A stretch of 64,000 nucleotides of DNA from Candidatus Latescibacterota bacterium (GTDB lineage Bacteria > Latescibacterota > UBA2968): NCBI GenBank assembly GCA_965204745.1, contig OZ242010.1, positions 3,840,001 to 3,904,000 on the forward strand, given 5' to 3'. This document shows, piece after piece, positions 6,071 to 33,638 of this stretch (position 1 is the stretch's first letter; each line of letters opens with the position of its first letter). The notes beneath the pieces are model-generated. The model was not told the DNA's origin. It made no database searches and saw only the letters and a program-made list of their open reading frames with translations. Both the position numbers and the translations under genes were made by a program.

Positions 6071-6071
6071 G

Positions 6072-7151: not shown

Positions 7152-7259
7152 TCATGTTCGTTCTCCTTGTAAGGCGGTAAGAGGTAAGGCGGGAGACGGG
7201 AGAGGTGAGACAACCCCGCCCAACGCCTAAGTGGTCAGCGGAAGTTTAGCCACAAAAAC

Positions 7260-8444: not shown

Positions 8445-8533
8445 CACAAAAACACAAAAAACACAAGCGGGGTACAACTGGCGATAGGCCGTTCAAAGAC
8501 ACAATCGGAGACTATCTCCCCTTCCCGAATCGG

Positions 8534-8876
8534 GGTGAAAGTCTTGTAGTTAATTTGTTGGTCATTGTTGATTGTTTGGTGTATGTTTTGTGTCGTATTT
8601 GTTCTTTGAAAAGTGAAGCGGGATAGGCCGTTGCTGATAAAGACATGTCTGCGACAGCGACAACCAAGCGGCAGACCTAAAATCTCCTATCAGCATAAAA
8701 TCCACAGGAAGAATAGTAAATAATAGACTATTCACTTGCGCGGCTAGCTTGACCGAGCAAGTAAAAAACGGACATGGAGGTGCTGTAAGACGGACAAGAG
8801 GTTGTATGTGCTTGGACGCTGGCCTGATGAAGCGTCAATTTCAGTTGGTCAACAATGATCAACAAGAAAGGAGCGG
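8534..8876 (+). mobile_element. Non-autonomous IS607-type mini-element (no tnpA/tnpB) carrying an omegaRNA scaffold
   Basis: Ends in AAGGAGCGG like the tnpB element; inverted subterminal TTGTTG(G/A)TCATTGTTG at both ends; removal at GG restores hairpin TCTCCCC..GGGGAGA. Confidence 0.72.
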
Positions 8877-8896
8877 AGAGCCTATTGTTCAAAAAG
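8739..8896 (+). ncRNA. Putative TnpB omegaRNA (scaffold to 8876 plus ~20-nt flanking guide)
   Basis: 8765-8838 aligns with 63442-63515: AAAACGGACRTGGAGRTGCYGTAAGACGGACAMGAGGTTGTAWGTGCKTGGACGC...TGAAGCGTCAAT. Confidence 0.65.
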
Positions 8897-10597
8897 CACC
8901 GGCGTTGCCAGCAAGCGGATGTTCTCTCGAATGCTGGTCAGATCGGCAATGGTTTGTTCAATGTCCTGAAGCGCGTCCTTCTTGGCCCGCTCGGCTTCGG
9001 CGATTTCGCTTTGTTTGGCTTTGATCTGCGAATCCAAGGCCGCCGCGTTCTCATCGATGAGGGCGTTCACTTGCTCCTCGAAATTTTTGGGCAGTTCGCT
9101 CCGCAATTTGCTTTTGATGGACGGGATAACGCTTCCAATCAGTTGGTTGCGAATCTGATCCTCCTGCTTCCGCTTTTGAAAGTAGGCAATAATGTCGGGC
9201 AGGAAGATAATGACGAGTTCCAACAGTGGCATCACAAAACTGGTGGTAATGGCGAGCGTGGTGGCGACAACACGGTACAAATTCCGCCCACCTTTGACTG
9301 CACTGCCGATCCCTTTGATAATCGCGCTCCCCGTGGAAAGAATCTGTGGGGCGTGGTACACTGCTTTTTCCAGCCAATTTTCATCTCTCGTATAAGAGGA
9401 CAGAATGTGGTCAATGCCTTTGACGCTGTTAGACAAGTCTTCGCCGATCTGTCTGTTCAACTGCTCCATTTCGGTTTTCACATGGCTCCCGAGCGAGGTG
9501 CGGAGGATTTCCGCCATCTGTTGCTGAAAAGCATCTTCGCCGCCGGACAGGGCGATGTTGGTCAACTCCTCTACGGCATTGTTCAAGTCCGCGCCCACGC
9601 GCTCCACAATGGTATTGACACGGGTCGTGGAATACCGCGAGCGGATGTCCTGAATCATAGCGTTTTTCTCGCGCTCCAAATCCCGGATGGCTGTGGCGAG
9701 TTTGTCAATGGCCGCTTGGTTCTCGCCCTCGTCCTTTTTCAAGGAACTGATCCAAGTGTTCAAGCTGCCGTCAATATCGAAGAAACTCGCCTCCAAGCTG
9801 GGGCGATAAAGCCGGGTGAAAAGTTTTTCCGGATCGATGGCATCGAGCGTTTTTCCAAGACTCGCCCCGCCATCCATGTCCACGGGCACGACCACATCGG
9901 CAAAGTCGAAATCGTCTTGGAGCCGATCCTTGACGTTCTGCGCGATCTCTCGAACCTCGGATTCCGAGCGCAAATTCGCCTTGCTCAAAAACACGGAAAA
10001 CGGCTTGTCGAACTCGTCAAACTCGGACAACTGCCGATGGGTCGATTGCGTGACCGTGCCCTCTTCCACGCTGATCAAGACCGCGTAATGGCTCCCTCGG
10101 TCAAGGTACGTCAAAATGGCTTTCTGGTGCAAATCCAGCGGCGAATCAAACCCCGGCATATCCACGAGCACGAGGGGCGCGATCCCCTTGAGTTGCTCGC
10201 TGTTGAGAAAGACCTCGACATATTGATATTGCGCCGCCTTTTCCTTAATCGCGCCGATCTCCTCAATGGCGTAGCGATCCGCCTCGCCATTTTCCATGAT
10301 GGCCTCGACGCGCTCCCTGTCGGAATAACGCAACTCGGTTGCCAGCGCGGTTTCCGGGGTGATGTTGACGGGCAGGAGTTCAGACCCCAAAAACGAGTTG
10401 ATCAACGTGCTCTTGCCCGCGCTGAATGCCCCGATCACCGGCACGACCAACTCGGCCTCGGCGATCTCCCGTTTCAACGCCTCTGCGGACTGGATGTTTT
10501 TCCCAAGTTCCTCAAACACCCCCAAAGCACTCGCCCTAGTCAATTCCGCCTTCACCCCATCCAAATAATCGCAAAACGTCCTCTGCGTCTGAAGCAT
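8882..10597 (-). CDS. Dynamin-like GTPase (Leo/Eleos-like, 571 aa)
   Basis: GAFSAGKS, PETALATE, DMPGFDS, SKAN; C-terminal hydrophobic paddle ATTLAITTSFVMPLLELVIIFLP. Confidence 0.9.
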   Translation of the reverse strand: MLQTQRTFCDYLDGVKAELTRASALGVFEELGKNIQSAEALKREIAEAELVVPVIGAFSAGKSTLINSFLGSELLPVNITPETALATELRYSDRERVEAIMENGEADRYAIEEIGAIKEKAAQYQYVEVFLNSEQLKGIAPLVLVDMPGFDSPLDLHQKAILTYLDRGSHYAVLISVEEGTVTQSTHRQLSEFDEFDKPFSVFLSKANLRSESEVREIAQNVKDRLQDDFDFADVVVPVDMDGGASLGKTLDAIDPEKLFTRLYRPSLEASFFDIDGSLNTWISSLKKDEGENQAAIDKLATAIRDLEREKNAMIQDIRSRYSTTRVNTIVERVGADLNNAVEELTNIALSGGEDAFQQQMAEILRTSLGSHVKTEMEQLNRQIGEDLSNSVKGIDHILSSYTRDENWLEKAVYHAPQILSTGSAIIKGIGSAVKGGRNLYRVVATTLAITTSFVMPLLELVIIFLPDIIAYFQKRKQEDQIRNQLIGSVIPSIKSKLRSELPKNFEEQVNALIDENAAALDSQIKAKQSEIAEAERAKKDALQDIEQTIADLTSIRENIRLLATPVLFEQ

Positions 10598-20539: not shown

Positions 20540-21441
20540 AAGGGCGTGCTCATGTACTTTTCCCCACTGTCGGGAAACAGGGTGACGATGACCCCATGAT
20601 CCAGGGTTTCGGCGACTTTCAGGGCCGCGGCCATCGCAGCACCGCAGGACTGCCCCACGAGCAGGCCCATGTCTCGGGTCAACCAGCGCGCTATGTGATA
20701 GGCGTCTTCGGTTTCGATCCGCATTTTTTTATCCCACACAGCGGGGTCGTAAATGCCGGGCACAATGGACACATCCATGTTTTTGAGGCCCTCGATGCCG
20801 TGAAATTCGGGCGGTTCAACGGCGATGATTTGCACATTGGGATTGCGTTCTTTCAGGCCCTGCGCCGTGCCCATCAACGTGCCACTCGTGCCCAAGGTTG
20901 CCACAAAGTGCGTGATTCTGCCCCGGGTTTGCGCCCAGATTTCTGGGGCCGTGTGCAAGTAGTGCGCTTTGGGATTGGAGGGGTTGTTGTACTGATCGGG
21001 TTTGTAATACCGATCCGGTGCGGCCGCGAGGATGTCTCGGCATTTCAAGATCGCGCCGTCTGACCCCTCGAGCGGGTCGCTCAAGACCAATTCCGAGCCG
21101 TAATGCTGAATGACGTAGCGCCGCTCAATGCTCACGCTTTCGGGCATGACCAGTTCGACCCGGTACCCCTTTGCCGCGCCGATCATGGCATAGGCAATGC
21201 CGGTGTTGCCCGAGGTCGAATCCAAAATCACTTTGTCGGATGTGAGTTCGCCCGCTTGTTCCGCATCCTCGATCATCTGCAACGCAGGGCGATCCTTGAC
21301 CGATCCGCCCGGGTTAAACATTTCGAGCTTGGCCCAGATTTCAACACGCGGATCGATCTTTTTGCCCAACCCGCGAATGTGCAACAACGGCGTTTTGCCG
21401 ATGGCATCGAGAATGGAATGGCGAATGCCCTTGCGCTTCAT
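20515..21441 (-). CDS. cysM: PLP-dependent cysteine synthase B
   Basis: NPGGSVKDR, TSGNTG, GTSGT; adjacent to mec and cysO. Confidence 0.88.
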   Translation of the reverse strand: MKRKGIRHSILDAIGKTPLLHIRGLGKKIDPRVEIWAKLEMFNPGGSVKDRPALQMIEDAEQAGELTSDKVILDSTSGNTGIAYAMIGAAKGYRVELVMPESVSIERRYVIQHYGSELVLSDPLEGSDGAILKCRDILAAAPDRYYKPDQYNNPSNPKAHYLHTAPEIWAQTRGRITHFVATLGTSGTLMGTAQGLKERNPNVQIIAVEPPEFHGIEGLKNMDVSIVPGIYDPAVWDKKMRIETEDAYHIARWLTRDMGLLVGQSCGAAMAAALKVAETLDHGVIVTLFPDSGEKYMSTPLWRLNSAR

Positions 21442-21464
21442 AAATGGCCTGCCCGATCTCGAGG

Positions 21465-21851
21465 TTAATACAGCTTTGCCAAAAATTCGGTGAAACTGCC
21501 CGATAGGTCGGATATCTCATCGCTTTCGTGATTCCAAAAAACCACCGAATCAATTCGCCCGTCTGCAATTTTGAAAGCGATGAAATTTCCGAATGGGTCT
21601 GTTGCAATGGGGATTAGGTTATCGGGAGGGATCGCTTGGGCAATGGCGATGGTGTCTTCGAGATCGACCATGTAATCGAGGACGCATTCCCTTTCGCGTT
21701 CCGCGTCAAATCGTTCCAAGGTGGGTTTTCCTCGGTTGCATGTCTCGAGCGATGCCTTGTAGTCATCCGGCAGGCTGAGGTCAAAGTGTGCCTCAATTTT
21801 TGCCACTTGGTCTTTGTCCAATGGCGAGACGTATTTCCATTCTAAGGTCAT
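21465..21851 (-). CDS. SMI1/KNR4 (SUKH) immunity protein
   Basis: IEAHFDLSLPDDYK, IPIATDPFGN, VFWNHE, SFTEFL. Confidence 0.9.
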   Translation of the reverse strand: MTLEWKYVSPLDKDQVAKIEAHFDLSLPDDYKASLETCNRGKPTLERFDAERERECVLDYMVDLEDTIAIAQAIPPDNLIPIATDPFGNFIAFKIADGRIDSVVFWNHESDEISDLSGSFTEFLAKLY

Positions 21852-21867
21852 CACATGCTCTCCTGTT

Positions 21868-22353
21868 TTATCGTGCTTCGCTTCCACCGCCCCATAAGCT
21901 CCAGCCGCCTACATGCGGAGTTCTGCGGTGGACTTCAGAATCTACCAACTGCATGCGCCCCGGTTCTTCGTGGTGATGCCAAGTATATCCTTCGGGCTTA
22001 TCGCCATTGCGGATTTGTTCTAGTTGCCTGTCGGTGAATTGCTCGGTGTCGAGCGTGCCGTTCTCGTAAGCCTGATGCAACTGCTCGTTGCAATACTTGT
22101 CATGCAGATAACGAGAATCCTCGAGTTGATCCTCGGGGAGTTGGGTTTCATAGCGGCAATGTTCAGAGAAATCGTGTATCAACCCCTGTTCTTTCAAATC
22201 CGCGAGGCGAATCTCATACAAAATTTCAGCGCGGAAAGACTCATCTTGGAGCATCACATCAACTCGCTCACCGATGACTTCTTGCGGAATCTCTTTCTCG
22301 ATTGCCGAAGGGGTTTCGCTCAACTCGGTTGCCGTAGTCTCAATAACCATCAC
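21868..22353 (-). CDS. HNH/EndoVII-fold WHH nuclease toxin
   Basis: PEGYTWHHHEEPGRMQLVD..H..HVGG. Confidence 0.9.
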   Translation of the reverse strand: MMVIETTATELSETPSAIEKEIPQEVIGERVDVMLQDESFRAEILYEIRLADLKEQGLIHDFSEHCRYETQLPEDQLEDSRYLHDKYCNEQLHQAYENGTLDTEQFTDRQLEQIRNGDKPEGYTWHHHEEPGRMQLVDSEVHRRTPHVGGWSLWGGGSEAR

Positions 22354-25300
22354 ATCACTCGCTTTCTAATGGCGTTGCGTATCTCTTGCACGATTCGCTT
22401 TCTAATGGCGTTGCGTATCTCTTGCACGATCTCGCGGTCGTCAACGAGTAGCTTTTTGTCAACGATTTTATCAAGTGCTTCGGGTAGTTTAATGTCTGTT
22501 TTCTTTGATTTCTTCGTTCCACGTTCATAAATAGCCAGATTTGCTACGCTCTCCATGATTCTATCCCGACTGCTCTCACCCAGCCATTTGTCAAAGGCCG
22601 CCATGAACCGCACGCGATTAAAACGCAGGCGATCATCCCAAAGGCGATTAACAGCCTCTAAAACATCACCATCAATGACTCTTTCCTTCGCAAGCCCCAA
22701 AGTCAAAAAAAATAACACGCGGCAAAACCATTCGCGCAAGGCACGTTCTATGGTTTCATCAGTGACGTACATCAGTTGCTCTGCTTTTCTGGCCGTTTTT
22801 ATGGCTTCGGGCAAGAGATCGTCGAGTTCAGAATTTGAGAGAAATAACGAACGAAGCAATTTTATGGCTTCGGGCAAGAGATCGTCGAGTTCAGCGTTTG
22901 AAAGAAAAAGCGAATGGAGCAATCGCAGTGCGATGGCACGCAGGTCTCGGCTGTCCAGCAAGCCGCTCTCGTGTAATGCGAGTTCCGGCTCCTGGCCCTC
23001 GACTTTGATCCTTATATCTCCAATCGCCTCATTCGGCAGTTCATTAAAAACGGAAATTTCAACCGGCTTTGACATTCCCTCTTTGTGCGCGAGTGCCGTG
23101 CCCGCAGAAAGTTGGTTGAGGTACCGGCATTCCTGTTCCTCCAATCCCAAGCCCGTGCCGACGGCGATTTGGTCATCGATTGAAACGAGCCTGTGGATGA
23201 TCTTGGTGTTGGTGTTCTTGATGACATCCGGGGCGATTTTGGTCGGGATTTGCTCGGCGACAATCACGCCTTGGCCGTAGGAGCGCATCTCGGCAATGAG
23301 GTTGCAAAAAGACTCGACGGCTTTGCCTTTGGGATTGCCGATCATTTCACTGGTGCGCTCGGTTTGCACGTTTTTGAGCAACCTGTGCGCTTCTTCAATA
23401 ACCAAGACGTGGTGGAGATCATCCGTGTGTGTCAGAGTGCTTTCGCGGGCCGAACATTGCCGGTATTCGCTTACCAACGCGAGCATCAAACCGACGAAGA
23501 AGGCTTTGTCGTCGTCATCGGAAAGGGATTCGAGTTCAAACACAACGCGACCTTTTAGCAAATCCTCTATGTTTCTAAAATCGTGCGTGTTAAAGAGAAA
23601 GCCCTTCGCGCCAACGGCTAAGGATTCGAGACGGGCGACAATCGCGCTGCGGATATTGTCCTGCAATTCGCCTTTGTATTCCAATTCCTCTTTTACATAC
23701 CGGTTCACATCGTCGATCAAGTCTCTGATCGTGGGATAGATAAAGCGGTGAGTTTGGCAATCCGCGAACGTTTTTATTTTCACCCGCTGATGGTTGCCCG
23801 TGGTCAAGTTCCATCCGCGATCCTTGTAGATGTTGTAAATACATTTTTCGAGGATGTAGGGCATCGGCCCGTAGAGGGAGAAACTCGCGTAAAAGATGGA
23901 TTTGAGGTTGTCGATATGGGTGATGAGCGACACCCCGGGAAGCACCATAAACGGGTTGTGGCGTATTGGCGAAACACCCGAATCGCCAACCGTATAGACG
24001 CGCAAGTTGCCGTCGTATTTCGCATCGGTCAATAATCTGCGGTATTCCCTCTTGGCGGATTCGATGACGAGGAAGGGCGTGTCAATGCTGTGCAAGATGT
24101 GCTTGACTGTGGTCGTCTTGCCCGATCCGGTGAGGCCAGAGACAAAGATGTGTTTGCGGATGTCGTCTTTTGAGATGGTAAAGTCAGAGCCTTTTACAAC
24201 TCGTCCGTGTTCGGAAATGCGACCGATTGAATAACCTGCGCGGTCTCGGGTATCCGTCAGGCTCAAGGCGGGTTTGACGCGAATATCATAGCCGGGAACA
24301 GAAGAAAGCGGCGGGGCCATGAGCAAGGCGGCTTCGTCGCTCGACAAGAACGACAGCAATTTGTTGCCCGTGATGAGGGATCCCCCATCTCGCTCTTTGG
24401 GAACGAAGATCGGTATGTCGGCGGATAACGCACCGCTGACGTTTCGGATCGGCAGGGCGTCGGGATCGGCCTTGATGAGTTCGCCTGCCAAGGTGCCGGA
24501 TAAAATTTGCGAGGCCGTACGCGATCCTGTCGCGTATGTGATAAAACTTTCCCAAAGCCCGGTGTTCAAGCCATTACGCAATCGGGTGATCAGCTTATCG
24601 GCGATACTTTCCAACTCCCTCGCAAGCGTGTTCTGCTGTTCGTAGGAAAGACTGCGCCCGACGTTTTCCGACCAGCCTACGGAATCGGTTTCCGAACGGC
24701 TTGAGAATTTTGTTTTATTGTAAGAGTACCCCACAGAAGGCAGAAGCATCAGCCCCATCAGCCCCATCAGCCCCGTCATACCCACATTGAATCCATGAGA
24801 ACGCGATTCCCCTTCTGTCTCTTGAACCGCATGGCTTTGGTTTATGCCTGCACTCTCTTCCAGCCCGATTTGCCGATTTGCCAGCGCGTGGCACTGATCT
24901 TTTCGGTTCATCAGTTCGTGAAGTTGCTGTGCCGTCTCGTATTTCGCAACAGGACGTGAGACTATCGCCAAGAGAAATTCCTGCCCATTCATGCTTCTTA
25001 TGACCGAAGACAGATCGAAGGTCTGTTTTTTCTTATCTATTTTCTGTGTCGGAATACCTGTGAGGACGCCGCCATGCTTTTGTTCCTTTAGCCTGTTGAC
25101 GATTCTTTCTCTATCGGATTCGATGCCTTTCCCGGGATAAACCCCCTGCAATTGTTCCCTGAACACATCCTTCACATCTTCCTCACCTCTGACTCCAAGA
25201 AAAATGTCAACCGTGCCGCCGCCATCTCCTGAAATGATCGTCGTAAGCGTATAGCCTGCTTGGGCGGCGGCGACAATCGCGGCTTGCTGTCTTTTGTAGA

Positions 25301-25553
25301 TCAGATCAGCCACATCTTGAGCATCGGCGGACACAGAAATCTCCCCAACTCGAAACAAATAGAGCGAATCGAGAAATCGCTCAATGTCGCCGCGACCTCG
25401 CATGACGTTTTCGCGCAGGGTATCGGTGTCCGTTGACGCAATGGTCCAAGGGAGAAGGTCCGAGAAAATTGCGTTGAGTTCCCGCGCCCCATCTTCCTGA
25501 TCAGGCACTTTCTGTTTTTCAAGAGCCTTTGTCATAAATGCCTCTCTTGTCAT
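22350..25553 (-). CDS. HerA/FtsK-superfamily ATPase (DUF87-like), 1067 aa
   Basis: Walker A GLTGSGKT, Walker B VIEEAH, EMRSYG, EQIP; Gly-rich hydrophobic stretch near aa 260. Confidence 0.88.
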   Translation of the reverse strand: MTREAFMTKALEKQKVPDQEDGARELNAIFSDLLPWTIASTDTDTLRENVMRGRGDIERFLDSLYLFRVGEISVSADAQDVADLIYKRQQAAIVAAAQAGYTLTTIISGDGGGTVDIFLGVRGEEDVKDVFREQLQGVYPGKGIESDRERIVNRLKEQKHGGVLTGIPTQKIDKKKQTFDLSSVIRSMNGQEFLLAIVSRPVAKYETAQQLHELMNRKDQCHALANRQIGLEESAGINQSHAVQETEGESRSHGFNVGMTGLMGLMGLMLLPSVGYSYNKTKFSSRSETDSVGWSENVGRSLSYEQQNTLARELESIADKLITRLRNGLNTGLWESFITYATGSRTASQILSGTLAGELIKADPDALPIRNVSGALSADIPIFVPKERDGGSLITGNKLLSFLSSDEAALLMAPPLSSVPGYDIRVKPALSLTDTRDRAGYSIGRISEHGRVVKGSDFTISKDDIRKHIFVSGLTGSGKTTTVKHILHSIDTPFLVIESAKREYRRLLTDAKYDGNLRVYTVGDSGVSPIRHNPFMVLPGVSLITHIDNLKSIFYASFSLYGPMPYILEKCIYNIYKDRGWNLTTGNHQRVKIKTFADCQTHRFIYPTIRDLIDDVNRYVKEELEYKGELQDNIRSAIVARLESLAVGAKGFLFNTHDFRNIEDLLKGRVVFELESLSDDDDKAFFVGLMLALVSEYRQCSARESTLTHTDDLHHVLVIEEAHRLLKNVQTERTSEMIGNPKGKAVESFCNLIAEMRSYGQGVIVAEQIPTKIAPDVIKNTNTKIIHRLVSIDDQIAVGTGLGLEEQECRYLNQLSAGTALAHKEGMSKPVEISVFNELPNEAIGDIRIKVEGQEPELALHESGLLDSRDLRAIALRLLHSLFLSNAELDDLLPEAIKLLRSLFLSNSELDDLLPEAIKTARKAEQLMYVTDETIERALREWFCRVLFFLTLGLAKERVIDGDVLEAVNRLWDDRLRFNRVRFMAAFDKWLGESSRDRIMESVANLAIYERGTKKSKKTDIKLPEALDKIVDKKLLVDDREIVQEIRNAIRKRIVQEIRNAIRKRVM

Positions 25554-25573
25554 TCATCGAGAAACCGCCATCA

Positions 25574-25813
25574 CTACTCGGCATCCAACACGCGCTGAAA
25601 TGCCGCCAGATCGGTCACTTGCGCCGCCGAGCGAAGCAACTGCTTGAGGCGTTGCAAATCGTCAATGGCCCTGATACCGGCGGCGAATTGGTTAGCCGCG
25701 TTAGGGTCAAAGCGAACCTCCAACACGTCGAGGATATATTCAACTGCACGCTCTCTACCCGCTCTTTGCATGAGATATTGTGCAAACGATGATTCACGCA
25801 TAATCGCGTCCAT
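25574..25813 (-). CDS. Standalone Rpn C-terminal domain protein (RpnS-like)
   Basis: Paralogous to the last ~77 aa of upstream Rpn; own RBS AGGAGG before MDAIMRESS. Confidence 0.75.
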   Translation of the reverse strand: MDAIMRESSFAQYLMQRAGRERAVEYILDVLEVRFDPNAANQFAAGIRAIDDLQRLKQLLRSAAQVTDLAAFQRVLDAE

Positions 25814-25827
25814 AAGACCCTCCTGCA

Positions 25828-26694
25828 CTACTCGGCATCCAACACGCGCTGAAATTCATCTAGACCATCAACTTGCACTGCCGCATGAAGCAACTGCTTA
25901 AGCCGTTGTGTATCGTTGATGGTCGCAATGCGACCTGTGAACTGGCCGGCCGCGGCCGGACCAAAGCGAATCTCCAACACTTCTTGGATGCTCTCTTGCA
26001 TGCCCACTTGTTTAATGTATTGTGCAAACGACGATTCGCGCATAATCGCGTCCATAAGACCCTCCTGAGAAATGATGCTCGTAATAGTGCTTGGCTCGTA
26101 CACCAACCCACTCAATACCGCCAACCCACCCAAAAAATTAGCCTTGGTTGAATGATCCAACGACACCTCATCGGTTTTGAGGATACACTGACGCAACCAT
26201 TCCTGTGAAGCCATCCCCACAGGCGGTTTCATCAATGGCGCGAACGGTAGCAAACCTCGATGACCGCCCTCGATAATGCTTTGCCCGTCTATCTCGCTCA
26301 GCCGAATCACCTTGTAGCGCACCACCACTTGGAAGTCGGGATGCTCTTGGATGTAAAGCCCTGGATCGTGCCGCCCTGCATCGGGCCGCAAGTAGATTAC
26401 GCTGGAATAGACAGGTAGGCCATACTTCTCAATAGCGCGGCCGACATAGCTGGGTATGCGGTGCTGCATCGGGATGCCCGTGCTGTCCGTGGTTTGAAAT
26501 TCCGTGTGAACCACGACATCTTTGCCATCGATCCGCACGAGAATCAGGCTATCGGTTTGGCGCGTTTCAACCGTGGGTTGTTCCGTGTCGAGGATTGCTC
26601 GGAACTCAACGTCGGTTCGTTCAAGTGCGAATTGGACGAAGTCGTCGGGGTAAGTTTGAATCAGTCGTTTGGAAATCGTATCGTATTCGGCCAT
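25828..26694 (-). CDS. Rpn/YhgA-like PD-(D/E)XK nuclease family protein
   Basis: YDTISKRL..P, TDSL, HTEFQ, VIYL, LLPFAPL, MRESS. Confidence 0.8.
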   Translation of the reverse strand: MAEYDTISKRLIQTYPDDFVQFALERTDVEFRAILDTEQPTVETRQTDSLILVRIDGKDVVVHTEFQTTDSTGIPMQHRIPSYVGRAIEKYGLPVYSSVIYLRPDAGRHDPGLYIQEHPDFQVVVRYKVIRLSEIDGQSIIEGGHRGLLPFAPLMKPPVGMASQEWLRQCILKTDEVSLDHSTKANFLGGLAVLSGLVYEPSTITSIISQEGLMDAIMRESSFAQYIKQVGMQESIQEVLEIRFGPAAAGQFTGRIATINDTQRLKQLLHAAVQVDGLDEFQRVLDAE

Positions 26695-26758
26695 GTGGAT
26701 ACCTTCGGCTCAAAAAATAAAATCATCCCTGCTTACATCCGCAGGGCCATTGTATTCC

Positions 26759-26950
26759 CTATTCACTAAAAAGGTGCAGGCGCGCTCCACCGAGCGGTGG
26801 GGTGATATTGTATTTGGGTTTCGTATCGACCCCCAAGCGGTGCAATTCCAACTCCAACTTCTCGTGCCGCGCCACCAAATCTGGATCAACCATCGGGTTG
26901 CGCCTAAGAATTTCAGCCTTTTCCATCGGCTTGGGCATTTGATTGGTCAT
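26759..26950 (-). CDS. Hypothetical 63-aa protein
   Basis: Co-oriented ORF with RBS GAGGA just after the upstream stop. Confidence 0.55.
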   Translation of the reverse strand: MTNQMPKPMEKAEILRRNPMVDPDLVARHEKLELELHRLGVDTKPKYNITPPLGGARLHLFSE

Positions 26951-26958
26951 GGTATTCC

Positions 26959-27609
26959 TCAGCGTCTGAGGCGGATTCTCTCGCGGATTCTCTCGAGTTT
27001 TTCCTCTATGCGTTCCTGCAAGTATGCCTCTTGTACTAGTTCACCGTCCCATATATCGAAATCAGCAATACCTGATGCAACACGTATTGCTTCAACCAAA
27101 AGGTCAATGTCGTCAACGCCGCGGTGGAGTCCGCGGTAAAGGATGGCGTATGCCAATGTAGCATCGCGGAGATCAATATCACTGAATGAGCCAGCGATCC
27201 ATTGATAAGGAATATTTATTTTTTGAATTTCCTCTGCCATTTGTGTGCCATGTGCGCCGCCGCAACATGACATACACACACCAAGGCCACCGATATACTC
27301 ATGAATGTCAAGAAGGTAGTCAGCGAGTTCAGGCCACGGGATTCTGCTCTGATCGGTAAGTTGAATGCCTTGTTCGCTCCCGTGTGTACTGAGATGCAAA
27401 ATTGGAACTTTGCGGAACTTATCTATGGCTTCTTCAACCCTATTAGTCATTGCGATGTCGAATTGATCCAAGTCAATCGCAAGATTATATGAGTATTGAA
27501 TCCCAGCGATGTCGAGAAGCCCGTATAGAGCTCCGCCCTCGGTAATACCATCAAGCAGTTCGTCAGGCGATGGTGATTCGACTATATGGACATAGAAATT
27601 GTTAGCCAT
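26959..27609 (-). CDS. Caspase/CHAT-like protease-fold protein
   Basis: ILHLSTHG and VCMSCCGG give a His-Gly / Cys dyad spacing. Confidence 0.6.
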   Translation of the reverse strand: MANNFYVHIVESPSPDELLDGITEGGALYGLLDIAGIQYSYNLAIDLDQFDIAMTNRVEEAIDKFRKVPILHLSTHGSEQGIQLTDQSRIPWPELADYLLDIHEYIGGLGVCMSCCGGAHGTQMAEEIQKINIPYQWIAGSFSDIDLRDATLAYAILYRGLHRGVDDIDLLVEAIRVASGIADFDIWDGELVQEAYLQERIEEKLERIRERIRLRR

Positions 27610-27610
27610 T

Positions 27611-28216
27611 TCAATTTTCCTCCGCAGGTGTGATTTCCTCAAACAGCGCGACGTATTCATCAATGATTTTTCGCGCTTGTTCTTGGTAGCGCGTCTCAAC
27701 CGCATCGAGATGGGCATGCAACTGCTCTAAGGTCTTTGTCTTATTGCGCTTATCCACGACGCGGGGAATGAGAAAGAACATGCCCGCTGCCACAACGACG
27801 ATAAACGCGCCAGAGGGAAAAGCGGTAGCGACAACAGCGCGATAGATGCCGCCAGCAGCGACAACACCAGAGGCGATCTGGATGTATTTTTTGGGCAAAA
27901 TTTTAGGCGAAAAGGACGCGGTCTCGTCAATGCGGGATGAGACCTGATCGCGGATTTTACTGTCGTAATACCGATTTTGATCCACGGGTGCCCAGTTGGA
28001 GATCGCTTGGCGGGCGTCTTTGTCCAGATAGGTCAGCAAGGTCGTCTGGATGACGCCATTGATATTTTCGATGCGCGCCCTCAACTCTTGGGCGATTCGC
28101 TCCGCGTACATTTCGCTTCCGCTGTTCTCTGAGTCCAGATCATTGAAATACGCTTTGATCTCTTGCACCATAGACCCAATATCAGAGAAGATGAGTTCAG
28201 CGTGGGTGAGTTTCAT
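27611..28216 (-). CDS. Helical protein with a two-helix hydrophobic hairpin
   Basis: IASGVVAAGGIY..AFIVVVAAGMFFLIP; TGATG coupling to the dynamin gene. Confidence 0.7.
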   Translation of the reverse strand: MKLTHAELIFSDIGSMVQEIKAYFNDLDSENSGSEMYAERIAQELRARIENINGVIQTTLLTYLDKDARQAISNWAPVDQNRYYDSKIRDQVSSRIDETASFSPKILPKKYIQIASGVVAAGGIYRAVVATAFPSGAFIVVVAAGMFFLIPRVVDKRNKTKTLEQLHAHLDAVETRYQEQARKIIDEYVALFEEITPAEEN

Positions 28217-30255
28217 CACAATTCTCCTGCGATTTGCGTACACTTTTTGATGTTGTCCTCGAAAGTTTTTTTTTGTTTTTTCAGATCGGAAATCTCATCT
28301 CCCAATTCTTCATTTGTTCTTTTGTCTCCCTCAAGATTTTCCATAAACTCCTGTCGCTTCTGAAGTTCCCCATTGAATTGACGCTCATATCTGTCGCAGA
28401 AATTATTTATTAGCCGATCAATTTGTTGCTGAACTTCCGTCTCAATTTCTTGAGATAAGGTTACAAACGGCCCTCTAATCATCTCCCAAAACACATATGC
28501 ACGTTTTTCTTCAATTTCATTTATTTGTGTATTCCTAGAGTCGCAACAACTTCCCTTTGCGCTTTCTTTGGCTACCAAGTCCTTGATTTTTTTTTCGGTA
28601 GCCTTTATCCCTCTCGTCCAAAAATTTCTATCCAATGGGACTTTGGGCACAGTTATTGAGTAATCACTCTGCACACCAATAGCTCTTTCCTCTATTCTTT
28701 TCTTAAAATCTGACTCCAGTGAATTAACGAATTGGGTCATTTCATCATAGTAATCTTCTCGCAATTTTTCTCCATAAGATTCGACATTTTTGGGTTCCTC
28801 TCCGGGTCTAAAACTTTTTTGGTTGATCTCGTTGCGGAAGCTATTCACTATTTGATGTATTTCTCGATAATATCTGCTGTTTCTATTTTTTGGAGAGAAA
28901 TCATCTCTCAATTCGGCGGTAAATTCATTGTAATCCCTTCTCATTCTCTCCGTTTCATCTTTATGCTTCTGTATTTCCGATGCAAAAGACTGAGGGTTCT
29001 GATACTTCTTTCGCAGGGGTTCTATGCGTGCGCTAATGTTGTTGTCAAGGACTTCATACCCCTCTTTTAAGTCAGTAGCAAATTTCTTCATTTGAATAGA
29101 TGCTGACTTTTGTGCATCGCGTTCAATTCTTTTGCGAATCTCGTCGAAATTCGCCTGCGCTTCTAATAGGTCGAGAAACTCATTTATATCGTCATTGGCC
29201 TTAAAAAAGCACGGCGCAGTCAGCCCCATTATTTTCGAGTCCGCAGAAAGAATGGCCTGGACTTCATCCATTGTTTTTGCTTTGTAAAAGGATTTTTTCA
29301 GATAGAGTTCAGTTAGACTATCGACAAGGAAGATATTATCCGCGCCAATTCCGGGATAATAGCTCTTGGTCGCATCCAATATTCTCTCGCGTTCATCTTC
29401 ATCGATCTGGCTCCTATGCGTCAGGACGAGTATCAAACGCCCTTTGACCCGTTCGGGAATCACATTCTCCAAGGCATTGCGGAGTGCGATACTTTCCTGC
29501 TGTCCCACTTTGTGTAAATAGATAACCGCATCCGCTTGGTTGATGAAATTCTTCGTCTGATCTTCTATGCCGCCAATCGCGTTGATTCCCGGCGTATCGA
29601 CAATTTTGAAATGCTTGGACTGCAAAAACTCAATCGGATAACCGAGTGCGACCGTTTTGGGAATCTCAGCACAAGAGATGTTGTGCTGGACATATTCGCG
29701 GATTTTTCGGGCAAATGCCTCTTTCTCCAAGTTGTGTACATTTTCGAGTTCGGGATCATCAATGAAGTCTCTCAATTCTTTCTCGCTGAATACCGCCTTC
29801 TTGCTTCTGTCGCTGTAACGATCCATCAAGAATTTGTTGACTTGGACGACGGGGATGTCGCGGTATTCATCTTTGACAGCAGCGATTTTCTTCAAAAACG
29901 GCACGGTCTCGTTTTCAGGCGTTCGCAGGTCGTCCTCAACGACTTGCTCTGTGCCATTGGCAAAGGAGACGCGCACTTCCTTTTTGTCGGACTTGTCGAT
30001 CTCAATGATTTCAGAGGTCGCTTGCAGGGCTTCATAAGGCAAGATCGCCTCGCCGAGAAGCGCGTTGATAAAGGTCGATTTCCCGGCTTTCACTTCCCCG
30101 ACAATGGCGAGCAAAAACTTTTCCGCTTCGATATTTTTTTGCGCCGCCCTCAAGCCCGCGTCAATGTGCTTGCCCTCTTTGCCAAGGTCCGCGTGCAGGG
30201 ATGTATAGAGATCTAGCAAAACCGTTCGGTGTCCTGCGAGTTGTTCGTAATTCAT
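28216..30255 (-). CDS. Dynamin-like GTPase (679 aa)
   Basis: GEVKAGKSTFINALLG, QATS, DTPGINA, helical C-terminus. Confidence 0.88.
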   Translation of the reverse strand: MNYEQLAGHRTVLLDLYTSLHADLGKEGKHIDAGLRAAQKNIEAEKFLLAIVGEVKAGKSTFINALLGEAILPYEALQATSEIIEIDKSDKKEVRVSFANGTEQVVEDDLRTPENETVPFLKKIAAVKDEYRDIPVVQVNKFLMDRYSDRSKKAVFSEKELRDFIDDPELENVHNLEKEAFARKIREYVQHNISCAEIPKTVALGYPIEFLQSKHFKIVDTPGINAIGGIEDQTKNFINQADAVIYLHKVGQQESIALRNALENVIPERVKGRLILVLTHRSQIDEDERERILDATKSYYPGIGADNIFLVDSLTELYLKKSFYKAKTMDEVQAILSADSKIMGLTAPCFFKANDDINEFLDLLEAQANFDEIRKRIERDAQKSASIQMKKFATDLKEGYEVLDNNISARIEPLRKKYQNPQSFASEIQKHKDETERMRRDYNEFTAELRDDFSPKNRNSRYYREIHQIVNSFRNEINQKSFRPGEEPKNVESYGEKLREDYYDEMTQFVNSLESDFKKRIEERAIGVQSDYSITVPKVPLDRNFWTRGIKATEKKIKDLVAKESAKGSCCDSRNTQINEIEEKRAYVFWEMIRGPFVTLSQEIETEVQQQIDRLINNFCDRYERQFNGELQKRQEFMENLEGDKRTNEELGDEISDLKKQKKTFEDNIKKCTQIAGEL

Positions 30256-30269
30256 GGTGTGACCTCGTG

Positions 30270-30388
30270 TTTTGAAGTGTCAAGACAAAACCGCTCCTGA
30301 GTTGGGGTTGCGTCAAAGTAGCAGGCGATTTTTGAAGTGTCAAGACGAAACCGCTCCGGAGTTGGGGTTGCGTCGAAGTAGCAGGCGA
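30270..30388. repeat. 60-bp tandem duplication
   Basis: TTTTGAAGTGTCAAGAC..GAGTTGGGGTTGCGTCRAAGTAGCAGGCGA twice. Confidence 0.9.
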
Positions 30389-30406
30389 CTGCTTCTTTAA
30401 TAGGAC

Positions 30407-31423
30407 TTACGCCAGGGTCATTGGTATCGCCGGTGTTTTGAGTTGTTGTCTCAAATAGTCCTCCCATAAGCCATGTTTGACTTGATAGATGGTTTGTCCG
30501 GTCTGATGGGCGACTTGGGTCAGTCGTCCCCAAACGAGGAAGGCACACGCGATATGGTTTCGCACAATGCGTGCCAATCGGCATTGACACTTTTCAAGTC
30601 CCGTCACCTGTTTTGCTTCCCGGTGAACTTGCTCAATCTTCCAACGCAAGTGACACACCGCTTGTGCCACTGACGGGTCGGTTTGAGTCAAGTCGTTGGT
30701 TACGATATACGCCGTGCGTCTCGTAGCAGACGCGACCCGGAATACGTTCACCTTGTGGTTTTTAGGGAACCCTCTGAGTTTAATGCGTTTCCCTGTGTCC
30801 TGTTCGCGTTTTGTCCAAGTTAAGGCATCGACCCGTTGATAGGGGTTTTCACCTGACGAATCGTCCACGAGGCGATTCTTTTTGATAGGACAGGAATAGA
30901 TCTTTTGTAAGTGCTCAATGTGAAGCATGACCGCTTTGGTGGCATACCAAGTATCCATCACCACTCGCTCAAAAGGCAGTTTTTTGTGATAGACCAAGAG
31001 CGACAACATCTCTTTGACGTGATCTAACTTGGTTTTCCCATCCCCTTGCGGATCGTAAATGCGATAGTCAATCAGCCAAAACCGATCTTCAACCGGATTG
31101 ACATACACACACGTCACCACACCGATCCCCGAGATGACCCCCTTCGCATTGCCACTGTATTGCCGACGCACGAGGGCCATCTTTTTGGCATAGCGCTTGT
31201 CTAAGACCGTGTCATCAAAGAGAATCACGCCCTTTGCGGTTGACGTGAGGTGGGGTTTGACGTTTTTCCAGATCTCACGCGGCGAGACGCGATCCCCACC
31301 CAGATAGCGGTTGAGCATATCATGCGTGAACCGGTCGCTGTGATCTGCGAAATGAGTCAGGGTATAGTTGAGCGGACTGCTAAGCAGATACTGGCAGTAA
31401 TCCAGGCGTGTTGGTTTCGCCAT
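30407..31423 (-). CDS. IS701-family transposase (copy 2, element 30401-31480)
   Basis: Near-identical to 6129-7145; same TIRs. Confidence 0.9.
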   Translation of the reverse strand: MAKPTRLDYCQYLLSSPLNYTLTHFADHSDRFTHDMLNRYLGGDRVSPREIWKNVKPHLTSTAKGVILFDDTVLDKRYAKKMALVRRQYSGNAKGVISGIGVVTCVYVNPVEDRFWLIDYRIYDPQGDGKTKLDHVKEMLSLLVYHKKLPFERVVMDTWYATKAVMLHIEHLQKIYSCPIKKNRLVDDSSGENPYQRVDALTWTKREQDTGKRIKLRGFPKNHKVNVFRVASATRRTAYIVTNDLTQTDPSVAQAVCHLRWKIEQVHREAKQVTGLEKCQCRLARIVRNHIACAFLVWGRLTQVAHQTGQTIYQVKHGLWEDYLRQQLKTPAIPMTLA

Positions 31424-31590
31424 ACAGACCTCCAAAGTGAGGATGGGGGTTCGATCCCGTTCTTTTTTGCGTAAGTCCTATTTGGGATGAATAATGGTCA
31501 ATCTTTTTGTTGACGTAAATAAAGATAGAATACCTATCACCATTTGTCAACCTTTTTTGGCATGAATAATAGTCAATCTTTTTGTTGACA

Positions 31591-32567
31591 ATGCGAATCA
31601 AGAGTAGAAAGCGAGTAAGAAGCAAGCCGCGGTCAATCGCCCAAAGACATGAACGAGTAAGCCCTCATAGGATCGTACCCGAGACGCCATCGAGATGTTC
31701 GTCTTTCGTTCAATCCAACTGAACAAGGCCTCTATAGGCTGTCGCATGCTCGAAACCGCCCGAGAAAAGTCTTTTTCGGCCTCGGTCAGGCTTTCTTGCC
31801 CCTTCTTTCGCTTCACCGGCGTCTTGAAGATCAGGTTCTGCTGTTTGCTAAGCGTGTCTTTTAAGGGCTGATCGGCGTAGATTTTATCGCCGTAGAGGTG
31901 TCCATCCCGCAAAACGGGTAAGCCTTGTCGCAAAGCGGTCAGGTCATGCTCTGCTGCGCCTGTCAAGCCGAAGTACTCTGCTTTGGGCAGGCCATTCGCT
32001 CGGTCTTGTGCGACAATGTGCAGTTTAGTGCCGTAATACCACATCTTTTTGGAAGCGCACCGGCCTTTGTTGGCCAGTTGTTCTTCGGCCACACATGCCT
32101 TTCCGCTACGTGCCGATTGTGCCATAACAATCGGCATGGAATCCACCCTGTAGGTGTGTTCAGAGACATCGGTTGCGGGACTGTCCTTTTGGATCTGTTC
32201 AATCAATGGGGCGAAGACCACACACAAACGGTTCAACCGCTGGATATAGCCTGCATAAGTGGGCAGATGGGGAAACCAGTCGGAAAGATGATCCTTGGTA
32301 TAGGTATAAATCGCCTTGATCTGCGTGTGTTGTTGCATGATCCCAAACAGATAGATCGTCAGCACTTCTTCATCTGTGAAGGTCGGCGTATCGTTATTAC
32401 TCATGCGTTGTGTATAAAACCACAGATGCTTTTGGTCATACTGCTGACAAATATAGACATACAAGTGAATGAGTTTATCTTGCCAATCCATCGCGTGCTC
32501 CTTCCTTTAAGGGTGAAATGGTTGAGCCCTCAAGAAAAGACAAGTACGCGATGGATTCAACTCTTAA
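31591..32567 (-). mobile_element. IS982-family element, upstream end clipped by IS701
   Basis: End ATGCGAATCAAGAGT; the other end stops at ACTCTTAA where the MITE at 37.07 kb continues TTCGCAT. Confidence 0.8.
31598..32491 (-). CDS. IS982-family transposase
   Basis: FTDEEVLT, VDSMPI, YYGTKLH, YGDKIY, RQPIEALF. Confidence 0.88.
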   Translation of the reverse strand: MDWQDKLIHLYVYICQQYDQKHLWFYTQRMSNNDTPTFTDEEVLTIYLFGIMQQHTQIKAIYTYTKDHLSDWFPHLPTYAGYIQRLNRLCVVFAPLIEQIQKDSPATDVSEHTYRVDSMPIVMAQSARSGKACVAEEQLANKGRCASKKMWYYGTKLHIVAQDRANGLPKAEYFGLTGAAEHDLTALRQGLPVLRDGHLYGDKIYADQPLKDTLSKQQNLIFKTPVKRKKGQESLTEAEKDFSRAVSSMRQPIEALFSWIERKTNISMASRVRSYEGLLVHVFGRLTAACFLLAFYS

Positions 32568-32622: not shown

Positions 32623-33638
32623 ATGGCGAAACCAACGCGCCTGGATTACTGCCAGTATTGCTTAGTAGTCCGCACAACTATACCCTGACTCATTTCGCAG
32701 ATCACAGCGACCAGTTCACGCATGATATGCTCAACCGCACGCTGAGTGGGGATCGCGTCTCGCCGCGTGAGATCTGGAAAAACGTCAAACCCCACCTCAC
32801 GTCGACCGCAAAGGGCGTGGTTCTCTTTGATGATACGGTCCAAGACAAGCGCTATGCGAAAAAGATGGCCCTCGTGCGTCGGCAATACAGTGGCAATGCG
32901 AAGGGGGTCATCAATGGGATCGGTGTGGTGACATGTGTGTCTGTCAATCCGGTTACCGATCCGTTTTGGTTGATTGACTCTCGCATTTACGACCCAGAAG
33001 GGGACGGAAAAACCAAGTTAGACCCCGTCAAAGAGATGTTGTCACTCTTGGTCTATCACAAAAAGCTGCCTTTTGATCGGGTCGTGATGGATACTTGGTA
33101 TGCCACCAAAGCGGTCATGCTTCACATTGAGCACTTGCAAAAGACCTATTCCTGTCCTATTAAAAAGAATCGCCTCGTGGACGATTCGGCAGGTGAAAAC
33201 CCCTATCAACGGGTCGATGCCTTAACTTGGACAAAACGCGAACAGGCCACAGGAAAACGCATGAAACTCAGAGGGTTCCCCAAAAACCATAAGGTGAACG
33301 TATTCCGGGTTGCATCTCCTACGGGACGCACGGCGTATATCGTAACCAACGACTTGACGCAAACCGACCCGTCGGTGGCACAAGAGGTGTGCCACTTGCG
33401 TTGGAAGATTGAGCAAGTTCACCGGGAAGCAAAACAGGTAACGGGGCTTGAAAAGTGTCAATGCCGATTGGCACGCATTGTGCGAAACCACATTGCGTGT
33501 GCCTTTCTCGTTTGGGGACGACTGACCCAAGTCGCCCATCAGACCGGACAAACCATCTCTCAAGTCAAACATGGCTTATGGGAGGACTATTTGAGACAAC
33601 AACTCAAAACACCGGCGATACCAATGACCCTGGCGTAA
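32623..33638 (+). pseudogene. IS701 transposase copy 3 (element 32568-33644), frameshifted near the 5' end
   Basis: CAGTAT-TGC versus CAGTATCTGC in intact copies; several Y>S and other substitutions. Confidence 0.8.

Follow-up and report, generated by a model that had tools for sequence, protein, structure and literature searches.

A dynamin, a VirB4/HerA-type ATPase and a polymorphic DNase toxin-immunity pair form a mobile conflict cassette in Candidatus Latescibacterota and other lineages

Do the eight genes at positions 21465-30255 of this stretch of Candidatus Latescibacterota DNA form one conflict system, and what is such a system for? The stretch, here called the window, is 64,000 nt long and all positions refer to it; L-numbers denote loci and G-numbers genomes of the comparison. 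We find eight open reading frames (ORFs), all on the minus strand, and both they and their junctions are exactly as a first-pass annotation of the sequence had placed them. That annotation read six of them as a candidate conflict system and allowed that the other two, the Rpn-like and 63-aa ORFs, may be later insertions. Our comparison shows that five of the eight are one horizontally mobile conflict cassette and that the other three are unrelated genes inserted into it. The core order is a dynamin-like GTPase (679 aa, 28216-30255), a helical protein with a Gly/Ala-rich hydrophobic hairpin (the hairpin protein, 201 aa, 27611-28216), a VirB4/HerA-type ATPase of ~1050 aa (1067 aa in the window, 22350-25553), a small toxin, here with a WHH nuclease domain (160 aa, 21868-22350), and an immunity protein, here of the SUKH/SMI1-KNR4 type (128 aa, 21465-21851). 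Read directly, the dynamin stop overlaps the hairpin start (TGATG), the ATPase stop overlaps the nuclease start (GTGATGTGATG), and a 16-nt gap with AGGAG separates the nuclease gene from the SUKH gene. The ATPase/toxin overlap is conserved across loci. All eight genes are intact, with dN/dS of 0.19-0.49 against the sister genome.

We searched 168 genomes of the phylum with the ATPase and obtained a match in 25, of which 11 besides the window are full-length at 47-88% identity. The 20-kb loci of these eleven, together with one degraded and one distant locus, were compared by tblastn. A dynamin gene adjoins the ATPase gene in 10 of the 11 related genomes and is absent in L031. WHH and SUKH genes follow the ATPase in 10 of the 11, and L041 has another toxin-immunity pair in the same slot. 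The hairpin gene was found in six of the 11, in five by tblastn and in L041 by reading ORFs. Dynamin is the least conserved core gene in these relatives, at 42-73% identity where the ATPase shows 68-87%. At a PAPS-reductase/cysK hot spot, G083 (L109) carries a scar that fuses dynamin aa 1-74 to SUKH aa 53-140.

A wider set of 46 loci came from a pattern scan with one genome per species, and neighbouring genes were compared by ORF calling, blastp and clustering. Because the scan requires one of two exact octapeptides, 46 is a lower bound. Twelve loci are from Candidatus Latescibacterota records and 34 from other lineages. The Gamma- and Betaproteobacteria contribute Vibrio metschnikovii, Pseudomonas, Halopseudomonas, Legionella, Thiofilum, Advenella and Tepidiphilus; other bacterial loci are from Bacteroidota, Binatia, Cloacimonadota, Ignavibacterium, Brocadiaceae/Scalindua, Calditrichaeota, WOR-3 and others. 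Two archaeal metagenome-assembled genomes (MAGs), from Woesearchaeota and an 'uncultured archaeon', also carry it.

The first-pass annotation had made its proposal depend on co-occurrence of the genes elsewhere, and this holds for the five core genes, not for the gene it called caspase-like. Dynamin lies upstream of the ATPase in 38 of the 40 loci with at least 1 kb upstream on the contig: within 1.5 kb in 36, across the three-gene insert in L045, and as a distant (23% identical) version in L087. L044 and L083 have no upstream dynamin. At least 31 of the 38 loci with dynamin have the hairpin gene; where it lies between, it accounts for the 610-700 bp that typically separate the dynamin and ATPase genes. 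A toxin gene begins within 200 bp downstream of the ATPase at 38 of 42 assessable loci. The remainder are L057 and L065, with an immunity-like gene and no toxin ORF, and L083 and L087, with neither. Clustering of the neighbouring ORFs at the 46 loci returned no sixth gene family that recurs across lineages.

The cassette is also found on plasmids. Among 43 plasmid records that match the ATPase family, we inspected eight: three have ATPase-WHH-immunity (two of them with annotated dynamins), one is linked to a CoCoNuT restriction system, and four are different. ATPase identity in the plasmid versions is ~28%. In Lactococcus cremoris pB26B, genes for two dynamins and for two small proteins, one of which has a Gly-zipper tail, are followed by those for the ATPase, a WHH toxin and DUF6985. 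A Treponema saccharophilum plasmid has two dynamins, a tail-anchored protein, the ATPase, WHH and SMI1/KNR4, and on an Exiguobacterium plasmid a 658-aa protein without a detectable family precedes the ATPase, WHH and SMI1/KNR4. An Acinetobacter piscicola plasmid (L097) shows a different cassette around the same ATPase family, a WYL-domain gene followed by the ATPase homologue and five hypothetical genes.

Two further genes recur beside some loci. A protein with Sel1-like repeats (called by eye, ~200-520 aa) lies near the cassette or its empty site in L035, L041, L040, L052, L108 and L109, and a ~140-aa single-pass membrane protein recurs beside the same loci (for example L041:4697-5699). In the Woesearchaeota locus, a repeat-protein gene stops 3 nt ahead of the dynamin gene. 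We considered both as core genes and rejected them, as they are absent from most loci.

The three genes between the hairpin and ATPase genes are a lineage-specific insert that entered there in the common ancestor of two genomes. They encode a 216-aa protein with HLSTHG and MSCCGG motifs (26959-27609, minus strand), which starts 1 nt after the hairpin gene by direct reading, a 63-aa ORF (26759-26950, minus strand) and a 288-aa Rpn-like ORF (25828-26694, minus strand). The full set occurs in one of the 11 related genomes (L032) and in the window, which bears out the earlier suggestion that the 63-aa ORF and the Rpn-like gene may have come in later. The 63-aa ORF has no family in Pfam, NCBIfam, PADLOC or PHROGs; it is kept in L032 (dN/dS 0.39 against L032), and L031 has two copies. 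The 288-aa protein likewise matches nothing in Pfam (even at E <= 10), NCBIfam, PADLOC or PHROGs, so that the name Rpn gains no library support. Its D...E-x-Q motif may resemble that of Rpn/YhgA. A partial duplicate of its C-terminus (25577-25831, minus strand; aa 208-288, 61% identity) takes up the greater part of the 274 bp between this ORF and the ATPase gene.

The 216-aa protein had been labelled a caspase-like protease, and this label is unproven. We found no match in NCBIfam, PADLOC or PHROGs and none above cut-off in Pfam, where the sole match is iREC, under its cut-off (E 0.0074-0.0094; 16.4-16.7 bits against 27). Protein language-model look-alikes are DUF6642 clusters, one with CHAT on 11% of its members, and this is a lead only. 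The gene is present in eight of the 168 genomes of the phylum, six of which lack the cassette. In these six, an ATPase search gave no match in four, a weak partial match in one and a short fragment in one, and no cassette gene lies within 1.5 kb of the 216-aa gene. Because it is found in six genomes without cassette genes nearby, we regard it as an independent gene carried in with the insert. Its candidacy as the system's protease, or as any component of it, was rejected: among the 11 loci it occurs in one, as part of the insert, and elsewhere it occurs without the cassette.

What does the cassette deliver or restrain? The dynamin, WHH and SUKH assignments of the first-pass annotation all lie above Pfam cut-offs. 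The window toxin matches Colicin-DNase (7.6e-26, 91.2 bits) and WHH (1.3e-16, 60.5 bits; cut-offs ~25), and the immunity protein matches SMI1_KNR4 (3.7e-20, 73.2 bits against a cut-off of 25.4) and SUKH_6 (8.9e-19). The toxin begins with an adaptor, MVIET..TELSETPSAIEKEIPQEV, followed by the WHH nuclease domain (HNH/EndoVII, colicin-DNase-like). Residues W124, H125 and H126 are invariant, and the WHH motif of the window is intact. An alignment of 20 toxin N-termini shows that toxins across loci share a mostly helical module of ~55 aa with the pattern M-h-E-x-h-x-A ... KE-SP(L/V) ... IEN-x-SLE-x-L-x-A-x-NE, in a diverged form in Latescibacterota. This N-module matches no Pfam family.

The domains joined to the N-module are WHH, LHH (9.7e-24), Endonuclea_NS_2 (3.3e-14) and two types without a Pfam family, which by eye look restriction-endonuclease-like. 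Immunity genes change with the toxin. Downstream of WHH and LHH they are of SUKH families, the L041-type toxin is paired with a DUF7832-like gene, and the lactococcal WHH toxin with DUF6985. In L071, a DUF1232 gene lies 109 bp downstream of the Endonuclea_NS_2 toxin, and we did not count it as an immunity gene. No trafficking domain (signal peptide, Rhs, LXG/WXG, PAAR, TPS and the like) was found in the toxins, whose Pfam matches are nuclease domains only, and so the earlier observation of a nuclease with a cognate immunity gene and no known delivery domain stands. These comparisons indicate that the toxin slot is polymorphic, with a cassette-specific N-module, interchangeable DNase domains and matching immunity genes.

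The ATPase has three regions: a VirB4-NTD-like N-terminal half (~30-440), the ATPase domain (~440-850) with Walker A GLTGSGKTT and Walker B VIEEAH, and a private, all-helical C-domain (855-1066). Residues G473, T475, G476, G478, K479, T482, E720 and E721 are invariant in 35 sequences. The name HerA given to it earlier holds in part. PADLOC models for HerA (1.7e-15) and mad8 (9.3e-18) match, and three of four scanned homologues pass the DUF87 cut-off of 23.2 bits (L063, L058 and L066 at 37.7-38.8 bits; L052 at 20.7), but the window protein itself falls short at 19.4 bits. NCBIfam matches to CedD (8.3e-19), ser_rich_anae_1 (4.3e-29) and a VirB4-family conjugal ATPase (2.5e-9) are all far under cut-offs. 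An AlphaFold2 model built from the 35-sequence alignment (pLDDT 79.7, pTM 0.67) was searched with Foldseek. Its C-terminal half matches HerA, both archaeal and from Sir2-HerA, HerA-NurA and DUF4297-HerA, as well as VirB4/TrwK. The HerA matches 8wod and 4d2i are at E ~1e-12, and the full model matches 7o43, 8rtd and 4ag5; the HerA-type fold matches are 8wod, 8ziq, 9c1n, 4d2i and 9x1m, and profile sequence matches are 8yho, 9x1l and 8xau. For residues 1-445, modelled separately (pLDDT 78.0), the PDB matches at E <= 1e-3 are solely the N-terminal domain of TrwK/VirB4 (seven matches, best 5.1e-5, TM 0.29-0.36). Identity in the VirB4/TrwK fold alignments is 8-12%, that is, negligible sequence similarity. 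The C-domain (210 aa, helical) matched nothing.

The ATPase family is large: a profile search of 1.84 billion cluster representatives found 6,389 proteins at E <= 1e-3, of which 3,036 reach E <= 1e-30, and ~40 cluster representatives match across almost the full length. The few named members are called 'DUF87 domain-containing' or 'hypothetical'. Phage records gave two weak partial matches only (27-31% identity), on unannotated contigs.

Residues 231-302 of the ATPase, with pLDDT <50, are modelled as a low-confidence beta-hairpin (241-250/281-290) with a hypervariable tip. The tip is Gly/Ser/Thr-rich and indel-rich (alignment columns 330-400), and in the window it contains the stretch GLMGLMGLM, encoded by a 9-bp tandem repeat of 3.6 copies found with Tandem Repeats Finder (24747-24778, minus strand). 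The Gly-rich hydrophobic segment that had been pointed out in this protein is thus real but is not a conserved membrane element, being a repeat in a hypervariable, disordered loop; this loop is short and non-hydrophobic in three of ten close homologues. A conserved transmembrane anchor was rejected on the repeat, the hypervariability and the low pLDDT. A bold reading would be that six such Gly/Ser/Thr-rich hairpins of a hexameric ATPase form a membrane-inserting channel. The C-domain carries two in-frame tandem duplications on the minus strand, one of 63 bp x2 (21 aa; 22797-22923) and one of 36 bp x2.1 (12 aa; 22358-22435) at the extreme C-terminus. Both are private to the window and absent from all ten close homologues. 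A complex prediction for ATPase residues 303-1067 with the toxin, run without controls, scored 0.20 and 0.09 against a mark of 0.32 and is silent on binding.

The window dynamin matches Dynamin_N (2.8e-17, 63.7 bits against a cut-off of 27), and the closest solved sequence is Nostoc BDLP 2j68 (2.4e-12). In PADLOC it matches LeoBC (7.4e-14, GTPase part only) and LeoC (8.6e-6), and no cassette protein of the window matches LeoA. The dynamin of L063 also matches LeoBC (1.1e-10). The hairpin protein of the window gave nothing usable in Pfam (also at E <= 10), NCBIfam, PADLOC or PHROGs. Its homologue in L063 matches the LeoBC profile at positions 354-527 (2.1e-6) and the LeoB profile at positions 321-510 (9.2e-5). 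Among hairpin look-alikes in the protein atlas that have a Pfam family are Fzo_mitofusin and DLP_helical (0.81-0.82), a lead only. The dynamin and the hairpin protein are distant relatives of LeoB/LeoBC of Eleos, the model matches being weak and partial. Since the L063 hairpin matches fall in the C-terminal halves of LeoBC and LeoB and the hairpin gene is translationally coupled to the dynamin gene, the hairpin protein is probably the stalk and membrane-paddle part of a LeoB-like dynamin, split off as a separate protein.

Is the cassette then a known system? We compared it with the nearest described systems. Eleos, the 'Dynamins' system of LeoA and LeoBC, is defined as two genes (10.1101/2022.12.12.520048, 10.1101/2022.05.11.491447). 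The cassette shares with it a dynamin-family GTPase with a membrane-anchoring part, defence-island settings and LeoBC matches to its dynamins; in the Lactococcus plasmid, dynamin 1 matches LeoA (3.1e-14) and dynamin 2 matches LeoBC (1.1e-6). The P-loop that Eleos requires (10.1101/2022.05.11.491447) is intact in the window dynamin as GEVKAGKST. Unlike Eleos, the cassette has a single dynamin in most loci, its window copy has no LeoA, and it adds an obligatory ATPase, a toxin and an immunity protein. The two dynamins that Eleos requires are found together only in the distant plasmid versions, not in the window.

The ATPase has another likely relative. Bell et al. (PMC11090510) describe an 'EccE3-HerA' of CoCoNuT Type III-A with a variable beta insertion, a VirB4-like ATPase and a small helical partner. 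Our ATPase model shows the same layout, and the helical N-module of the toxin is encoded directly downstream. An ATPase homologue (32.6% identity over 46% of the query) also lies beside a DUF2357/McrC-N gene on a Photobacterium plasmid, which links the two ATPase families. Judged by its predicted structure, the ATPase belongs to the VirB4-like 'EccE3-HerA' group that is also attached to CoCoNuT restriction systems; EccE3 itself is not among the listed PDB fold matches of the N-terminal half. The cassette differs from CoCoNuT in that neither it nor the 46 loci have CoCoNuT/McrBC or vWA genes, and it has no kinase genes. In PMC11090510, 'dynamin' occurs 0 times and toxin-immunity partners are unmentioned. 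The resemblance to VirB4/TrwK lies in the two-domain architecture, at fold level only; at the 46 loci no other type IV secretion system (T4SS) genes recur with the cassette, and the ATPase has the extra private helical C-domain of 210 aa.

Like Sir2-HerA, DUF4297-HerA and NurA-HerA, the cassette encodes a HerA-type ATPase beside a nuclease or effector. Those ATPases are ~500-600 aa with a HAS-barrel N-terminus, whereas ours is ~1050 aa with a VirB4-like N-terminal domain, and their effectors have no separate immunity protein, are not polymorphic colicin-type proteins and come without a dynamin. Type VII secretion system (T7SS) loci with EssC/YueA and LXG/WXG toxins likewise have a constant N-module, swappable nucleases (WHH, LHH and others), SUKH immunity and an FtsK/HerA ATPase (PMC3113570, PMC3482391). 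However, the cassette ATPase is single-domain and VirB4/HerA-like where EssC is triple-domain, and we recognised no WXG100 or EsaC genes in the cassette. Colicins differ as well, since the cassette toxin has no receptor-binding or translocation domains and a dynamin is obligatory. The word 'dynamin' occurs 0 times in PMC3113570 and PMC3482391, and passages of a lactococcal plasmidome paper (PMC11381338) and a P. laudensis paper (PMC13335696) mention dynamins only as DynA or LeoABC. A set of dynamin, VirB4/HerA ATPase and toxin-immunity pair is found neither in PADLOC v2 nor in the full-text literature that we searched, supplementary tables excepted, which bears out the earlier impression that no named system fits. 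The parts are all of known kinds, but we found no description there of their combination, of the N-terminal module of the toxin, or of a dynamin tied obligatorily to a VirB4-like ATPase.

What might the cassette do? Our preferred reading, to which we give a probability of roughly 0.5, is that it is related to Eleos and defends its host, in the manner of abortive infection, against phages or other DNA that invades the cell. A hexameric ATPase and the dynamin, held in place by the hairpin protein, would be located at the cytoplasmic membrane and would detect, or act upon, something linked to infection, for example the entry of DNA or a disturbance of the membrane. The toxin would be made in step with the ATPase through the overlapping stop and start and would dock on it via the N-module, and the immunity protein would hold it silent until triggering. 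On a trigger, NTP hydrolysis would free or position the DNase, and the DNA of the infected cell would be degraded. Some hosts probably regulate the operon through a WYL-WCX protein.

Several observations count for defence. In B. subtilis, the LeoA/LeoBC dynamin pair gives protection against jumbo phages that is lost when the P-loop is mutated (10.1101/2022.05.11.491447). A related ATPase lies beside a CoCoNuT-type gene, and the HerA fold matches include Sir2-HerA and DUF4297-HerA. WYL or WYL-WCX genes, confirmed by Pfam, adjoin the cassette in L055, L056, L059, L077, L071 and L058, with L061 a seventh WYL-linked locus by clustering only. L057 and L066 have type I or III restriction-modification methylase genes on their flanks. 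All toxin domains that could be identified are DNases. In five of five isolate genomes, exactly one protein has the N-module, the cassette's own, and the L041-type immunity gene is present in one of the 168 genomes of the phylum, its own. The window cassette lies in a low-GC island (GC 0.40-0.53 against 0.53-0.62 outside) with insertion sequences and a PIN toxin gene. Across one genus there is a single hot spot, at which the cassette is found whole, truncated or deleted. A Gelidibacter MAG (L083:4135-19206) has a 38%-identical ATPase homologue, without dynamin or toxin, between type-I-RM-like genes (by eye) and the gene of a Piwi protein (Pfam Piwi 5.2e-10); next after the Piwi gene comes one for a protein of 1084 aa.

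Other observations weigh against defence. No PADLOC model recognises the cassette as a system, and the dynamin and ATPase matches are weak and partial. To our knowledge, known defence effectors seldom have a dedicated immunity protein. WYL regulators are found at only 6-7 of the 46 loci and not in the window. In G081 (L108), at the same hot spot as the scar of G083, only an intact WHH toxin and SUKH pair remains; the retention in G081, L057 and L065 could reflect addiction, or a shield against the toxins of neighbours, just as well as decay. The window operon is split by the three-gene insert, its toxin lacks a ~40-aa Ala/Glu/Val-rich stretch of the N-region seen in relatives, and it has W in the motif HxGG(R/K) where 14 of 15 sequences have R/K. 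Because of the split, the shortened N-region and the R-to-W change, the window copy may be attenuated. A constant N-module with swappable toxin domains and downstream immunity is a hallmark of secreted polymorphic toxins (PMC3482391, PMC3113570), and for LeoABC a connection with vesicle-associated release of toxin is also reported (PMC4159319).

The last two points lead to the main rival, which is possible, if tentative: the cassette is a new toxin-delivery route for cell-cell competition, in which the ATPase reads the N-module and loads or translocates the DNase, the dynamin part carries toxin to neighbours by membrane fission or fusion (vesicles or cell-cell fusion), and immunity shields the producer and its kin. 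The polymorphic-toxin grammar argues for it, in that DNases of at least five families share the N-module and are directly followed by their cognate immunity genes, and so does an ATPase that is VirB4-like in both its N- and C-terminal domains. FtsK/HerA-type pumps export toxins in T4SS and T7SS (PMC3113570, PMC3482391), LeoABC dynamins raise vesicle-associated secretion in enterotoxigenic E. coli (ETEC; PMC4159319), and immunity genes outlast the toxin or apparatus in L057, L065 and G087. A vesicle or fusion route would also explain why diderm, monoderm and archaeal hosts carry the cassette without envelope-spanning parts. In an envelope-independent form of this idea, which we consider doubtful, a VirB4-like motor would load a DNase via its private N-terminal tag and the dynamin would pinch or fuse the membrane, whatever the envelope type. 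Against delivery, however, stand the single substrate per genome in the five isolates searched, the lack of orphan toxin or immunity arrays downstream in the loci listed and of orphan copies of the L041-type immunity gene in the 167 other genomes of the phylum, and a cargo of DNases with no identified domain against wall or membrane. The ATPase has no conserved transmembrane segment, the neighbouring genes are of defence-island rather than secretion type, and a cytoplasmic dynamin bends the membrane the wrong way for outward budding, a point made in PMC4159319.

The cassette could also be a selfish addiction or element-competition module, in which the toxin-immunity pair stabilises its island or plasmid or excludes rival plasmids, with the NTPases as accessories. 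We think this unlikely. Its occurrence on plasmids and in insertion-sequence-rich islands and the survival of the pair alone in G081 would suit such a module, but a plain pair needs none of the three large genes (~5.8 kb) that are kept with it across phyla under purifying selection. The conserved stop-start overlap of ATPase and toxin also speaks against it. A DNA-transfer or DNA-uptake device of the VirB4/Ced type, whose nuclease processes the transported DNA, is very improbable. Although the VirB4-like fold, the partial matches to CedD and the conjugal ATPase, and the DNase-only cargo point that way, those NCBIfam scores are all far under cut-offs. Non-specific colicin-type DNases with tight immunity proteins are toxins and not processing enzymes. 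Because the neighbour clustering found nothing conserved beyond the five genes, no relaxase, coupling protein, pilin or channel gene recurs, most neighbours being without a family annotation. Finally, the cassette might be two unrelated modules, dynamin/hairpin/'protease' and ATPase/nuclease/SUKH, that are chance neighbours in an island. In the window they do lie 2.7 kb apart with three other genes between. Yet elsewhere dynamin and hairpin genes mostly abut the ATPase gene directly, and the linkage spans Latescibacterota records to Lactococcus and archaeal MAGs; the locus comparison refutes this explanation, leaving it hardly credible. The first-pass annotation had left the choice between toxin delivery and abortive infection undecided; on balance our evidence leans towards defence, a function that we infer.

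The answer matters in either case. If the defence reading is true, the cassette joins three strands of immunity, namely dynamin (Eleos/Mx-like) immunity, HerA-scaffolded effectors and toxin-immunity pairs, and could give dynamin-based immunity the effector logic that it is missing. If delivery is true, it would be a new secretion principle common to bacteria and archaea, and a new category. The cassette also defines a new N-terminal address module for toxins and gives context to the large uncharacterised ATPase family. Because it occurs in cultivable hosts and on a dairy Lactococcus plasmid, the question is directly testable.

On one side the cassette is flanked by cysteine synthase and JAB genes, and on the other by three insertion-sequence transposase genes, a PIN gene and a PAPS reductase gene. 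A scan of 21300-30500 for promoters and terminators gave 6 sites against 9.3 expected and 15 against 10.9 expected, not above shuffles, and no operon boundaries can be called because such sites are no commoner than in shuffled sequence. One DDE transposase gene is present in three copies, at 6117-7142, 30410-31435 and 32658-33635 (97%, 100% and 93% identity). The latter two lie directly upstream of the cassette together with a different transposase gene (31598-32491).

The window also contains a second group of dynamin genes, on the minus strand at 837-3845, 3845-6115 and 8885-10597. The product of 837-3845 has 1003 aa with two helix-hairpin-helix motifs (HHH_3 2.3e-24) and scores 25.9 bits for Dynamin_N, just under the cut-off of 27. 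This gene overlaps that of a 757-aa dynamin (3845-6115; Dynamin_N 1.3e-22). A 571-aa dynamin (8885-10597; Dynamin_N 3.3e-19) is split from the 837-6115 pair by the transposase genes 6117-7145 and 7313-8326. The dynamin genes of 837-10597 may be a second, Eleos-like dynamin locus.

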